Assembly: GCA_034430835.1 (NCBI GenBank)
Contig: DAOUDX010000398.1
Span: 1 to 24,000 of the forward strand
Origin: Anaerolineae bacterium
Lineage (GTDB): Bacteria > Chloroflexota > Anaerolineae > B4-G1
DNA length: 24,000 nt
Direction: 5' to 3'
Shown here: piece by piece, positions 10,725-13,306 of the stretch
Layout: each line of letters begins with the position of its first letter
Position numbering within the stretch: position 1 is the first letter of the stretch
Program-made: the position numbers and the translations under genes
The notes under the pieces: model-generated
What the model saw: the letters and a program-made list of their open reading frames with translations, nothing else
Databases searched by the model: none
Told to the model about the DNA's origin: nothing

Positions 10725-10753
10725 TTGACACGCCTCCAAGACTGTGGTATTAT
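10725..10753 (+). promoter_or_regulatory. Consensus sigma70 promoter with extended -10 for arsR-hgcAB
   Basis: TTGACA (10725-10730), 17-nt spacer ending in TGg, then TATTAT (10748-10753). It lies 47 nt upstream of ATG 10800. Confidence 0.7.
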
Positions 10754-10759
10754 ATCGAC

Positions 10760-10779
10760 GTATAGAAATCTCTCTATGT
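10760..10779. promoter_or_regulatory. Candidate ArsR-type operator (imperfect inverted repeat) at the predicted arsR transcript start
   Basis: GTATAGA (10760-10766), 7 nt, CTATGT (10774-10779). TATAGA and TCTATg pair at 5 of 6 positions. The same two words recur upstream of hgcA at 11103-11109 and 11125-11130. Confidence 0.35.
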
Positions 10780-10799
10780 ATTGAGCGAAGCGAGCACCT

Positions 10800-11084
10800 A
10801 TGGTCAACTGCGTGGAATTCTGCAAGGCCCTGGCCGACGAGACGCGGCAAAAGATCCTGGAGATGCTGCAAGGGGGCGAGATGTGCGTCAGCGACATCGT
10901 GGCCGCCTTCGACATGTCCCAACCCACCATCTCCCACCATCTGAGCATCCTCAAGCAGTTCGGCCTGGTGACCAGTCGCAAGGAGGGCAAGCAGGTCTTC
11001 TACGCCATCGACCGGGATAACGTGATCGAGTGCTGCGGCAAGCTCTTCGCCAAGCTGGACGCGAGCGAGATCTGTGAGGTGTGA
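10800..11084 (+). CDS. arsR: ArsR/SmtB family metalloregulator
   Basis: 94 aa. LADETRQKILEMLQGGEMCVSDIVAAFDMSQPTISHHLSILKQFGLV is the classic ArsR wHTH. Six Cys at positions 4, 8, 29, 78, 79 and 92, including a vicinal CC. Confidence 0.9.
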   Translation: MVNCVEFCKALADETRQKILEMLQGGEMCVSDIVAAFDMSQPTISHHLSILKQFGLVTSRKEGKQVFYAIDRDNVIECCGKLFAKLDASEICEV

Positions 11085-11148
11085 CCACTCTTTTGCCTTG
11101 ATGTATAGAGGCATTTAAATACCACTATGTGAGTGAGGAAATGGGCGT

Positions 11149-12204
11149 ATGAGTGAAAGGGCACAGGGCTGCGCGTCCTGCTGTGGGCCGCTGACAGAAG
11201 CCGCATGGACTCTGGAGAATACAGAGTCCTCGACCATCCGCACCGCCACCAGCACCATCACCCGGGCGGACCGGTGGGATCACTTCCTGGCGCGCTGGGG
11301 CTACAAGCGGAACGAACACCGGGTCGAGCCAGGGCTGTACGCCCTGGGCAACCCCACCCCCGAATCGCCCGTGTTTGTCACCGCCAACTACACCCTCAGC
11401 TTTGACGCGCTGCGGTCGGTGCTGGCCGGCATCGACGGGTACATCCTGGTGTTGAACACCTACGGCATCAACGTCTGGTGCGCCGCCGGGAAGGGCACCT
11501 TCGGCACCGACGAGCTGGTGCAGCGGGTCGAGGCGACAGGGCTCGGCGAGGTCGTCAACCATCGCCGGCTAATCCTGCCGCAACTGGGCGCGACCGGCGT
11601 CGCCGCCCACGAGGTTAAGAAGCGCACCGGATTCAAGGTCGAGTACGGCCCGGTGCGGGCGGCGGACCTGCCGGAATACCTCAAGGCCGGCGAGGCCACG
11701 CCGGAGATGCGCCGGGTGCGCTTTGCCCTGCGAGATCGCACGGTGCTGATCCCGATTGAACTGGTCGGCATCTTCGTGCCGCTGTTGATCGCGACGGTTG
11801 CGTCACTCCTGATCGTCGGGCCGTTGGCAGCGGCGGGTGCCGTCGCCGCGGCGGCGGCCGGGGTGGTGTTGTTCCCTCTGCTGTTGCCCTGGATTCCGAC
11901 GCGCGATTTCAGCAGCAAAGGACTTATCTTGGGCGGGCTGGCGGCGCTTCCCTTCGCGCTGGCGGCCTTCCTTGGCAGGCCAGACACAGTGTGGTGGCTG
12001 CGGGCCGGCGGGGCGCTGGCGTACCTGCTGGGGCTGCCCCCGGTTACCGCGTTTCTCGCGCTGAATTTCACCGGCTCGACGACGTTCACCTCCAAGAGCG
12101 GCGTGCGCCGCGAGATGCTCACCTACATCCCCGTGATGGCCTGGACGTTCGGAGGAGGGATCCTCCTGATCGTCGCCGTCACGCTGCTCAGACTTCTCGG
12201 TTAG
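11149..12204 (+). CDS. hgcA: Mercury methylation corrinoid protein HgcA
   Basis: 351 aa. Diagnostic cap-helix motif GINVWCAAGKGTFGT within a corrinoid-binding domain (PVFVTANYTLSFDALR...), followed by five hydrophobic helices (~aa 200-350). Cys-rich N-terminus (GCASCCG). GAGGA Shine-Dalgarno. Confidence 0.9.
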   Translation: MSERAQGCASCCGPLTEAAWTLENTESSTIRTATSTITRADRWDHFLARWGYKRNEHRVEPGLYALGNPTPESPVFVTANYTLSFDALRSVLAGIDGYILVLNTYGINVWCAAGKGTFGTDELVQRVEATGLGEVVNHRRLILPQLGATGVAAHEVKKRTGFKVEYGPVRAADLPEYLKAGEATPEMRRVRFALRDRTVLIPIELVGIFVPLLIATVASLLIVGPLAAAGAVAAAAAGVVLFPLLLPWIPTRDFSSKGLILGGLAALPFALAAFLGRPDTVWWLRAGGALAYLLGLPPVTAFLALNFTGSTTFTSKSGVRREMLTYIPVMAWTFGGGILLIVAVTLLRLLG

Positions 12205-12215
12205 GAGATAGGACA

Positions 12216-12548
12216 ATGGCTACCGATGCTATTCGTGCAGATATCAACACCCTCGAGTACAACCCCGCGCTGTGTATCAACTGCGGGATGTGCATCGCCG
12301 TCTGCCCGCACGGCGTGTTTGCGCCCAACGGTAGAGCCGTTCAACTCGTCCGCCACGAGGCATGCATGGAATGTGGCGCCTGCCAGCAGAACTGCCCCAC
12401 CGGGGCGATCAGCGTCGATAGCGGCGTGGGCTGCGCTGCGGCGATGATTTATGCGGCGCTCACCGGCAGGAAGGAACCCACCTGTGGGCCGGGCCCTGAG
12501 CCGGGCGATGGGGAGTGCTGCGGCACCGGCGCACCGTGCTGCGGGTGA
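12216..12548 (+). CDS. hgcB: Mercury methylation ferredoxin HgcB (2x[4Fe-4S])
   Basis: 110 aa. CINCGMCIAVCP and CMECGACQQNCP motifs, a conserved Cys in VGCAAAM, and a C-terminal ECCGTGAPCCG tail. AGGAG lies 8 nt upstream, and the start is 11 nt after the hgcA stop. Confidence 0.9.
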   Translation: MATDAIRADINTLEYNPALCINCGMCIAVCPHGVFAPNGRAVQLVRHEACMECGACQQNCPTGAISVDSGVGCAAAMIYAALTGRKEPTCGPGPEPGDGECCGTGAPCCG

Positions 12549-12574
12549 CGATCTGGCCCGAAGAAGAAACTGCT

Positions 12575-13285
12575 ATGGAAGAATCCAACGTGCCCGCATC
12601 CGCCATGGTCATCATGGCCCACCCCGATGACGCCGAGTTCACTGTGGCGGGCACAGTGGCCCTGTGGACGAAAGACGGCTGCCGCGTAATCTACGTGGTC
12701 TGCACCGATGGGAACGCCGGGTCCCACGAACCGGGCATCACGCGGGAAGAGGTCGCCCAGGTCCGCCGCGCCGAGCAGCGCGCTGCCTGCAAGACGCTGA
12801 GCGTGAGCGAGGTCATGTTCCTGGGCTACGCCGACGGAGAATTGGAGCCCACGCTGGAGCTACGGCGCGATCTGGTGCGCACCATCCGCCGCCACAAGCC
12901 GGAGGTCGTGATCACCTGGGACCCAACCAGGCTGTTCCACGGCGACGGGTACATCAACCACCCCGATCACCGCGCGGCGGCGCAGGCTGCCCTCGACGCG
13001 GTGGCGCCCGCAAGCGCGATGCCGCTGCTTTGGCCCGAGGCTGGTCCCCCACATCGTGTGCGCCAGGTGTACGTCCACGGCAACGACAAGCCTAGCACGT
13101 GGATCGACATCACGGAGACGATCGGGCAAAAGATCGCCGCGCTCAGGCAGCACACCAGCCAGATGGGAGATTGGGACCCCACAGAGATGATCGAGGAATG
13201 GGCCGCCGAGACGGGCAAGGAGAAGGGCATCGCCTATGCCGAGAGCTACCGCGTGATCACGCTGGAGCGGACGGATACAGGATAG
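12575..13285 (+). CDS. PIG-L/LmbE family N-acetylglucosaminyl deacetylase
   Basis: MVIMAHPDDAEF (AHPDD.E zinc motif), LGYADGEL, INHPDHRAA. Starts 26 nt after the hgcB stop on the same strand. ATG 12575 was chosen over the in-frame extension from 12515, which overlaps hgcB. Confidence 0.85.
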   Translation: MEESNVPASAMVIMAHPDDAEFTVAGTVALWTKDGCRVIYVVCTDGNAGSHEPGITREEVAQVRRAEQRAACKTLSVSEVMFLGYADGELEPTLELRRDLVRTIRRHKPEVVITWDPTRLFHGDGYINHPDHRAAAQAALDAVAPASAMPLLWPEAGPPHRVRQVYVHGNDKPSTWIDITETIGQKIAALRQHTSQMGDWDPTEMIEEWAAETGKEKGIAYAESYRVITLERTDTG

Positions 13286-13288
13286 GGC

Positions 13289-13306
13289 AAGGCCGGGGCC
13301 TTTTGT
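13289..13306 (+). terminator. Rho-independent terminator after the deacetylase gene
   Basis: AAGGC-CGGG-GCCTT hairpin directly followed by TTTTGT, 4 nt after the stop codon. Confidence 0.5.

Follow-up and report, generated by a model that had tools for sequence, protein, structure and literature searches.

What controls the mercury-methylation genes hgcA and hgcB in an uncultured member of the Anaerolineales, and which genes are read together with them, is the question raised by a locus on contig DAOUDX010000398.1 of an Anaerolineae bacterium (GenBank assembly GCA_034430835.1). The 24,000 nucleotides (nt) analysed, positions 1 to 24,000 of the forward strand, are referred to as the window. 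The accepted marker of methylmercury formation by microbes is the gene pair hgcAB, and hgcA sequences of Chloroflexi/Anaerolineae are common in metagenomes. Four genes follow one another on the plus strand of the window: arsR (10800-11084; 94 amino acids), hgcA (11149-12204; 351 amino acids), hgcB (12216-12548; 110 amino acids), and a gene for a PIG-L/LmbE-family N-acetylglucosaminyl deacetylase (12575-13285; 236 amino acids; PIG-L below). They are separated by gaps of 64, 11, and 26 nt, and the same coordinates had been given in a preliminary description of the locus. The comparisons reported here make it highly probable that the locus is an ArsR-controlled unit of an uncultured member of the Anaerolineales (Chloroflexota), a predicted methylator, with the order arsR promoter, operator, arsR, hgcA, hgcB, PIG-L, deleted arsM, and terminator, in which PIG-L would be a passenger. 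Put forward tentatively, as possible rather than probable, is the broader proposal that in the Anaerolineales an arsenic-type ArsR regulon would regularly include hgcAB. Its defining element would be one operator, the palindrome ATAGA-N6-TCTAT, which hgcAB would have in common with arsM and genes for ArsP-like permeases; the switch would be thrown by arsenicals or some other thiophilic metalloid instead of mercury, and the LmbE-type deacetylase would have been drawn into the unit in the sublineage of the window.

Family membership of HgcA and HgcB

Judged by profile scores and residues, both HgcA and HgcB genuinely belong to the mercury-methylation families, and every residue known to be required is present. 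HgcA scored 439.2 bits (E=8.6e-132) against the hidden Markov model NF040863 (HgcA_corrinoid), which has a curated equivalog cutoff of 275. It remained below the cutoffs of both rival models, with 212.6 bits for the fused HgcAB-like proteins (cutoff 285) and 78.8 bits for the gamma subunit of CFeSP, the corrinoid iron-sulfur protein (cutoff 306), and the earlier assignment to HgcA is thereby upheld. The residues of HgcA and HgcB that are needed for methylation are known from mutagenesis in Pseudodesulfovibrio mercurii ND132, where the cap-helix cysteine is Cys93 (PMC7305189). The cap-helix motif noted before, NVWCAAGK, was found at residues 108-115 with Cys111 and was invariant in an alignment of 22 sequences. 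Hydrophobic stretches at residues 196-251 (the length of two helices), 256-278, 286-307, and 323-351 are consistent with the five transmembrane helices described previously, as counted by Kyte-Doolittle hydropathy only, which is a crude method. The corrinoid-binding domain was recognized by PF03599 with 55.8 bits and matched the CFeSP structure PDB 2h9a over residues 58-179 (E 2e-15). In the search of solved structures with the HgcA sequence, CFeSP was the sole match and no HgcA structure was returned. While the CFeSP large subunit (AcsC/CdhD) and the fused HgcAB-like proteins share a homologous corrinoid-binding domain with the HgcA of the window, the latter differs from them by its cap-helix cysteine, its five-helix membrane domain, and a ferredoxin that is encoded in a separate open reading frame (ORF).

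HgcB scored 113.3 bits against NF040864 (cutoff 99), above the curated cutoff. The published criteria for HgcB are two CX2CX2CX3CP motifs, a conserved cysteine about 12 residues past the second of these, and one or more cysteines at the C-terminus (PMC7305189). The HgcB of the window carries the motifs CINCGMCIAVCP and CMECGACQQNCP, with cysteines C20/23/26/30 and C50/53/56/60, respectively, followed by Cys73 in VGCAAAM, C90, and the C-terminal pairs CC101-102 and CC108-109. The ferredoxin motifs, the extra cysteine, and the Cys-Cys tail of the preliminary description were thus all present. The gene starts 11 nt after hgcA with its own AGGAG Shine-Dalgarno sequence, and is not of the fused form.

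Every sequence-level defining feature of a complete arsR-hgcA-hgcB module of the mercury-methylation type was found, as had been claimed. Family membership together with the full set of required residues makes the organism a predicted methylmercury producer. S-adenosylmethionine (SAM) is the methyl donor in this reaction, and the chemistry of mercury methylation has been established for HgcAB of ND132 (PMC11588087, PMC7305189). In the organism of the window, HgcB would reduce the HgcA corrinoid to Co(I), SAM would methylate the corrinoid, and the methyl group would then move from it to thiolate-held Hg(II).

The N-terminus of HgcA (residues 1-17; 11149-11200) is rich in cysteine, with C8, C11, and C12 in CASCCGP, and this is common to the clade of 71-90% identity. 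N-termini rich in CC, CxC, or CxxC occur in about half of 82 scorable hgcA loci from many phyla, for which start codons were guessed crudely. They were rejected as a special feature of this locus, since they are common across hgcA loci; their role is possibly in metal handling.

The nearest HgcA proteins are 89-90% identical and stem from metagenome sequences, and the next clade follows at about 76%. Named relatives of HgcA belong to metagenome-assembled genomes (MAGs) of Anaerolineae/Anaerolineales, and the named relative of PIG-L is also from the Anaerolineales. When a single genome was scanned for each species, the top HgcA matches came from Anaerolineales or Chloroflexia with 64-72% identity, followed by Methanoperedens, Methanosarcinales, and Methanoregula with 55-64%. 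This ranking agrees with the published grouping of Chloroflexi and Euryarchaeota hgcA (McDaniel et al. 2020, PMC7438021).

Promoter, candidate operator, and regulator of the unit

The promoter scan placed a sigma-70-type promoter ahead of arsR at 10725-10753 on the plus strand (TTGACA-17-TATTAT, TG-extended -10, 11/12 matches). When six lineages were aligned, its -35 box, TG, and -10 box did not vary, even in L086 and L090 (contigs used for comparison are cited by L numbers), which have a different upstream gene. The promoter already named in the preliminary description looks real, while the palindrome behind its -10 box had been overlooked there. This 16-bp palindrome, ATAGA-N6-TCTAT, is the candidate ArsR operator O1 (10762-10777, plus strand). 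It lies 8 nt past the -10 box, over the predicted transcription start, and occurs once in the window against 0.00 matches expected. It came to light by comparing the upstream regions of arsR; an inverted-repeat finder run on 10655-10805 with a seed of 6 returned nothing, because the operator arms are only 5 base pairs (bp) long.

Across 85 hgcA loci (645 kb), 18 exact matches to the palindrome were counted where 0.29 were expected. Seventeen of them lie within 1.5 kb upstream of hgcA, ahead of arsR, arsM, or hgcA, and the eighteenth precedes an ArsP_1-family permease gene directly after hgcB. In more distant Anaerolineae the palindrome sits between the -35 and -10 boxes, as in CTTGACAaATAGAcgtttaTCTATATAAT. 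A metagenome scan with the promoter-plus-operator DNA pattern only returned 120 loci, and among those with more than 400 nt downstream only 2 were without this ArsR subfamily or arsM/hgcAB. The palindrome is statistically tied to the promoters of arsR, arsM, arsP-like permease genes, and hgcAB. The two exceptions, L121 and L213, have more than 3 kb downstream in which no ArsR, ArsM, ArsP, HgcA, or HgcB homologue was found; they may be further members of the regulon or chance matches.

The genes after arsR in the 120 loci were most often arsM alone (35 loci), followed by hgcA(-hgcB) (18), an ArsP-like permease gene with or without arsM (11), and arsM then hgcA(B) (9). A second exact operator precedes arsM in 41/48 loci and the ArsP_1-family permease gene in 12/12. 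It precedes hgcA in 1/19 loci when hgcA follows arsR and in 0/9 when it comes after arsM, and the gaps ahead of hgcA in these metagenome loci are as short as -18 nt. Because a second operator is so rarely found before hgcA, this pattern is what joint transcription of hgcAB and the preceding gene would lead one to expect.

The regulator is assigned to the ArsR family by PF01022 (70.6 bits; cutoff 22) and NF033788 (101.7 bits; cutoff 55), and its closest solved structure is SrnR (7p6f, E 3.7e-16). Cysteines are found at positions 4, 8, 29, 78, 79, and 92. The recognition helix is near-identical among the hgcAB-linked ArsR proteins (n=17), and the vicinal pair Cys78-Cys79 is kept in 14 of these 17, which by alignment places the regulator in an ArsR subfamily with a conserved vicinal cysteine pair. 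ArsR proteins of the clade of the window have C4-x3-C8 and C29 in addition. An ArsR dimer on the operator over the transcription start would repress the unit, and binding of a thiophilic metalloid to the cysteine sites would release it. By analogy, the effector is most likely As(III) or methylarsenite, because of the arsM and arsP partners of the regulon and the precedent of ND132. There, arsR2 and hgcAB are co-transcribed, hgcAB is under the control of ArsR2, and the regulator responds to arsenic and to S-adenosylhomocysteine (SAH) (Gionfriddo et al., bioRxiv 10.1101/2022.10.17.512643; AEM 2023).

Once released, arsR, hgcA, hgcB, and PIG-L would be read through as one transcript up to a hairpin at 13428-13453. 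In the stretch from arsR to PIG-L one promoter was called, the first strong terminator is this hairpin, and a variant of the operator lies before hgcA. The variant site O2 (ATAGA-N3-ATTTAAAT; 11105-11120, plus strand) is found 29 nt upstream of the hgcA start, with the left half-site and spacing of O1, and occurs once in the window against 0.00 expected. Among 97 fetched loci it was seen only in the clade of the window and only inside the hgc unit: before hgcA in L086 and L090, before arsM in L081 and L086, and in L088 after hgcB and before the arsM relic. O2 may be a second, weaker operator or part of an internal promoter.

An exact site is also present in L049, an Oscillospiraceae MAG, at 3591-3606 upstream of a 72-amino-acid, cysteine-containing ORF (3691-3909, no Pfam match) that precedes hgcA. 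No ArsR homologue was found beside this site, which may thus serve a regulator encoded elsewhere. An Rfam scan of 10000-14000 in the window (E<=1) matched no RNA family, and hence no riboswitch was recognized ahead of hgcA.

The fourth gene, the arsM relic, and alternative readings

The gene order of the window is also found in L081-L085 and L098, the contigs with the closest HgcA proteins, and the order arsR-hgcA-hgcB-PIG-L is repeated in at least six independent assemblies (among L081-L087 and L098). The conserved flank consists of minus-strand genes for an Rrf2 regulator, cysK, a cysE-FeS-assembly fusion, and iscS, then arsR-hgcA-hgcB-PIG-L, and then a MarR-headed glycosyltransferase cluster of exopolysaccharide (EPS) type. 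L086 and L087, with 76% HgcA identity, keep the order with an extra 533-amino-acid gene before arsR and a gap of 113 nt between hgcB and PIG-L. The locus of L088 (75%) is without PIG-L, and in L090 (71%) hgcB is followed by a 76-amino-acid ORF, two flavodoxin-like genes, and a methyltransferase gene. In 80 species-representative hgcA loci, hgcB follows hgcA in 76, and an upstream ArsR homologue detectable by tblastn is present in 11.

In L090, the 76-amino-acid ORF without a Pfam match and the two Flavodoxin_2/FMN_red genes occupy 6277-7687, between hgcB and arsM. A Flavodoxin_2 gene also lies 3' of a PIG-L orthologue in the hgc-free context of L096 (6763-7449). The Flavodoxin_2 genes of these two loci may reflect a functional or a historical link.

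PIG-L scored 117.5 bits against PF02585 (cutoff 28.2); its metal-binding and catalytic LmbE motifs are AHPDD (residue 15) and HPDH (residue 129). Its score was below the curated cutoff of every thiol-pathway equivalog: BshB2 (100.2 vs 195 bits), BshB1 (95.7 vs 182), Mca (68.3 vs 277), and MshB (51.9 vs 224), so that an identity as BshB, Mca, or MshB was rejected. The closest solved relative is the archaeal diacetylchitobiose deacetylase 8bgn (E 1e-35). Within the LmbE/PIG-L superfamily (diacetylchitobiose deacetylase 8bgn and 3wl4, BshB, MshB/Mca), it shares the fold family and the AHPDD and HPDH motifs, but it passes no functional equivalog and is conserved across the Anaerolineales regardless of hgcAB. 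Protein matches run into the thousands, the best 120 being 75-94% identical and mostly 236-237 amino acids long. Orthologues of 76-82% identity occur in Anaerolineales contexts without hgcAB, namely after a PMT_2 glycosyltransferase gene, after an SHMT-GCV_T fusion, and between genes for a ketoacyl synthase and an aminotransferase.

At other hgcAB loci PIG-L was found by tblastn in 0/80. A Pfam census of 68 downstream neighbours of hgcAB recorded no PIG-L and no recurrent family, with a maximum of 3/68 for cation efflux, and the operator-defined metagenome loci contained PIG-L in 0/120. A recurrent association of PIG-L with hgcAB was rejected on these counts (0/80, 0/68, 0/120). In the sister lineages L088 and L090, PIG-L is absent from the locus. 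Because its orthologues occur without hgcAB and it is absent from 80 other hgcAB loci, PIG-L is best regarded as a lineage-specific passenger: by these distributions it is a core housekeeping gene of the Anaerolineales that in one sublineage ended up between hgcB and arsM, outside the methylation chemistry. The scan found no promoter-like or terminator-like site in the 26-nt gap between hgcB and PIG-L or in hgcB. With no site separating the two genes, read-through is the simplest expectation, and PIG-L is probably co-transcribed with hgcB. Of the unexpected fourth gene announced by the preliminary description, its place on the same strand 26 nt after hgcB stands, while the gene itself is a housekeeping deacetylase that is found in unrelated contexts elsewhere.

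The end of the unit had been placed at a terminator at 13289. The weak GC hairpin with a short T-run at this place (13286-13307, plus strand; 4-8 bp, -8.1 kcal/mol) folds no better than shuffled sequence (z = -0.27; 77/200 shuffles fold as well) and was not called by the terminator scan, so that it is given up here as a terminator; its sequence is kept in L098 and L083. The first convincing plus-strand terminator, predicted to close the unit, is the hairpin at 13428-13453, an intrinsic terminator that was originally that of arsM. Its stem of 11 bp includes 8 GC pairs and is followed by the tail UUUUCC (-22.9 kcal/mol, z = -5.1, 0/200 shuffles fold as well), and the feature consequently extends about 150 nt past the end coordinate given before. 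No other plus-strand terminator than the homologous hairpin (9103-9128) lies between the arsR and marR promoters of L081.

Between PIG-L and this terminator lies an arsM relic (13339-13401, plus strand), which consists of the last 20 codons and the stop of an arsenite methyltransferase gene whose body is deleted. The relic was detected by tblastn of residues 243-287 of the L081 ArsM against the window (E 2e-5); BLASTP gave 26/51 identities (E 4e-9), AYAVFSARISARKP being identical, and the DNA alignment with L081, L083, and L098 agrees. It is preceded at 13315-13330 (plus strand) by a degenerate variant site (ATAGATGAATTCGAAT) that aligns with ATAGAAAGATTTAAAT before the intact arsM of L081. 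Intact ArsM proteins of relatives pass NF008823 (cutoff 263) with 315.6 bits in L081, 345.7 in L090, 297.1 in L002, and 296.5 in L003, while the window itself holds the 20 terminal codons only and no full-length ArsM passing this model. The gene follows PIG-L in L081 and stands between arsR and hgcA in L002 and L003. The remnant points to an ancestral unit of the order arsR-hgcA-hgcB-PIG-L-arsM.

The arsM deletion of the window is shared by L098. In L083, about 195 nt of unrelated filler (8184-8377) lie between the same flanks where the window has a clean deletion, and this difference implies that arsM was lost there by a different event. In L086 and L087 arsM is split into two ORFs, in two independent assemblies, and in L088 it persists only as a start-to-stop mini-ORF. 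By these alignments, arsM has been lost at least three times in the clade (window/L098, L083, L086-87, L088) while hgcAB stayed intact. This repeated decay is an argument that the retention of hgcAB does not depend on arsenic methylation and serves another purpose than its support.

Several points weigh against the account of an arsenic-responsive, single methylation unit. The canonical alpha-3 As(III) site, ELCVCDL with Cys32/34/37 in E. coli ArsR, is reduced to EMCVSDI with only Cys29 in the regulator of the window; C4-x3-C8 and the conserved C78-C79 are possible other thiolate sites. The operator of the window's clade follows the -10 box, while the loci of the metagenome scan have the palindrome between -35 and -10, and the regulon evidence is therefore carried over by the identity of the half-sites and the near-identical recognition helices. 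The contribution of Chloroflexi to methylmercury production is described as unknown in PMC7438021. A breakpoint of the contig, from rearrangement or assembly, is present at 7534/7535, 3 kb away from the locus. PIG-L might be read from a promoter that departs from the sigma-70 consensus, and an internal promoter may lie at the variant site 29 nt ahead of hgcA, so that one promoter and one operon are insecure. While a single called promoter agrees with the preliminary description, its statement that there is only one stays uncertain because of the conserved operator-like site before hgcA.

Rather unlikely is an arrangement of separate units, in which arsR would be autoregulated alone, hgcAB would be read from an internal ArsR-controlled promoter at 11105-11120, and PIG-L would be independent. 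The variant site is kept exactly where the arsM of relatives has its own site, L004, L011, and L028 have an exact operator between arsR and hgcA, and a TTTAAAT about 20 nt ahead of the Shine-Dalgarno sequence could serve as -10 box. However, no sigma-70-like promoter was called in 11085-11148 or before PIG-L, and no terminator or stable hairpin was found after arsR (z = +0.27). In addition, 18/19 metagenome loci with hgcA after arsR have no second exact operator, with gaps down to -18 nt, and arsR-hgcA co-transcription has been reported in Pseudodesulfovibrio strains (cited in 10.1101/2022.10.17.512643). A functional partnership of PIG-L with HgcAB is judged quite improbable. In it, PIG-L would serve low-molecular-weight thiol synthesis or, like BshB/Mca, the cleavage of thiol conjugates, and would supply or recycle thiol ligands for the presentation of Hg(II) or As(III). 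Such a role would suit the position of the gene, which begins 26 nt past hgcB within the unit, with neither promoter nor terminator separating the two, and which holds this position in five sampled lineages, down to an HgcA identity of 76%. It would also suit its best NCBIfam matches (BshB2, BshB1, and Mca) and the divergent cysteine-synthesis cluster (Rrf2-cysK-cysE) next to the locus. The scores below all thiol-pathway cutoffs and a chitobiose deacetylase as closest solved relative speak against it, as do the orthologues of 76-82% identity in unrelated contexts without hgcAB. The gene is moreover absent from 80/80 other hgcAB loci, 68/68 downstream neighbours, and 120/120 operator-defined loci, and missing at the locus in the sisters L088 and L090. 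A literature search linking hgcA to LmbE, PIG-L, bacillithiol, or mycothiol, which was not exhaustive, gave no hgcA paper among the 15 listed of 199 matches.

The selected function of hgcAB may be something other than mercury methylation, with HgcAB acting in arsenic or other SAM/corrinoid-dependent chemistry and methylmercury as a side product, which is considered an outside but real chance. In its favour, many loci have hgcAB under one regulator and operator together with arsM and arsP-like genes, ArsR2 of ND132 responds to arsenic and SAH (10.1101/2022.10.17.512643), and halomethane dehalogenation by HgcAB was reported in a 2026 preprint. The intact hgcAB through at least three separate decays of arsM stands against a tie to arsenic methylation, and another selected function is compatible with the prediction that the organism methylates mercury. 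That the locus is an assembly artefact, or hgcAB a non-methylating paralogue, is hardly credible. While the window is metagenome-like and its colinearity with relatives breaks at 7534/7535, truncating iscS, the order arsR-hgcA-hgcB-PIG-L recurs in at least six independent assemblies, and the HgcA and HgcB models pass where the paralogue models fail.

Surroundings of the locus and comparison with known systems

On the minus strand, the divergent neighbours at 8212-10657 encode an Rrf2 (IscR/CymR-like) regulator, cysK, and cysE fused to a FeS_assembly_P (SufT-like) domain. Their promoter runs from 10713 to 10685 with 12/12 matches, its -35 box being 11 nt from that of arsR. The pairing of the cys cluster with arsR-hgcAB is retained in three sublineages. 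Outside the clade of the window, cys genes near hgcB were found in only two loci, L064 (a Zixibacteria MAG with cysK-cysE directly after hgcB) and L010 (cysE 2 kb away). An association of hgcAB with cysteine biosynthesis is not claimed, as these cases are too few.

The adjoining iscS-like cysteine desulfurase gene (7367-8215, minus strand) is truncated to IscS residues 1-227 of 406, covering positions 1-238 of 371 of the Pfam Aminotran_5 profile. Colinearity with the relatives, which carry iscS-nifU-metC here, ends at 7534/7535, and beyond this point the window instead holds the 3' end of a 1760-amino-acid DUF11-repeat ORF (2182-7464, plus strand). Either the rearrangement is real, or the break is a join introduced by metagenome assembly.

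Downstream of the unit, the promoter of marR (MarR_EPS-type; 13474-13502) overlaps at its -10 box with a perfect palindrome, AAAATTCAG-TCG-CTGAATTTT, at 13498-13518. The palindrome occurs once in the window against 0.00 expected, is kept in L081, L083, and L098, and is a likely MarR operator for the downstream glycosyltransferase cluster. From about 15000 to 24000, the guanine-plus-cytosine content drops from ~0.64 to ~0.52 over this EPS-type cluster of glycosyltransferase and methyltransferase genes downstream of marR. The fall in composition suggests a variable or horizontally exchanged glycan cluster; its gene content varies among close relatives.

The closest described arrangement is arsR2-hgcA-hgcB of ND132, which shares with the window the ArsR-type gene directly upstream and the same required residues of HgcA and HgcB, although the organisms belong to different phyla. 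The likeness to ND132 that the preliminary description had drawn holds for the arrangement, but does not by itself imply orthology of the regulator with ArsR2, whose cysteine pattern is another. ArsR2 has C26, C47, C49, C86, and C88, with the four-cysteine motif C47, C49, C86, C88, as opposed to C4, C8, C29, C78, C79, and C92 in the window, and ArsR2 homologues occur only in the Desulfovibrionaceae (10.1101/2022.10.17.512643). Because of these two differences, the regulator of the window appears analogous, rather than orthologous, to ArsR2, as compared by cysteine positions and published distribution. ND132 is without ars genes beside hgcAB, whereas the clade of the window carried arsM in the same unit, and no palindromic operator is described in the ND132 paper (10.1101/2022.10.17.512643).

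Environmental methylators resemble the window in having a regulator upstream of hgcAB and arsR/arsM nearby (PMC7438021; Zhang et al. 2023, PMC10349881). A putative regulator directly upstream of hgcAB was reported in 112 genomes, regulator transcripts were detected for Chloroflexi, and arsM and arsR were found near hgcAB (PMC7438021). Among confirmed methylators, arsR was upstream in 14/31 (PMC10349881). Both studies report co-localisation only; in the passages compared, ATAGA-N6-TCTAT, the arsM relic, and the insertion of PIG-L receive no description, and an operator is not mentioned in PMC10349881.

Classical ars operons, in which an autoregulated repressor ArsR is paired with arsM/arsP, share with the window the regulator family, a palindromic operator overlapping the promoter, and a second operator before arsM or the ArsP_1 permease gene. 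They differ in that the ArsR of the window is without the canonical alpha-3 CVC As(III) site, that hgcAB forms an additional cistron, and that the window is without a functional ars structural gene.

The arsR-hgcA-hgcB layout is already known, and in this respect the locus adds one more predicted methylator. The operator, the regulon defined by it, and the repeated decay of arsM with capture of PIG-L appear undescribed in the literature compared (10.1101/2022.10.17.512643, PMC7438021, and PMC10349881), which is not the full literature; the candidate operator and the arsenic regulon would be useful additions beyond the known layout. The promoter-operator pattern pulls arsR-arsM, arsR-arsP, and arsR-hgcAB units from public metagenomes, and the regulatory element offers a concrete handle on what controls hgcAB and on its native role. 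If the proposed regulon is true, the capacity to form methylmercury in the abundant Anaerolineales of sediments and soils would be induced by arsenicals or another thiophilic metalloid, and not by mercury.

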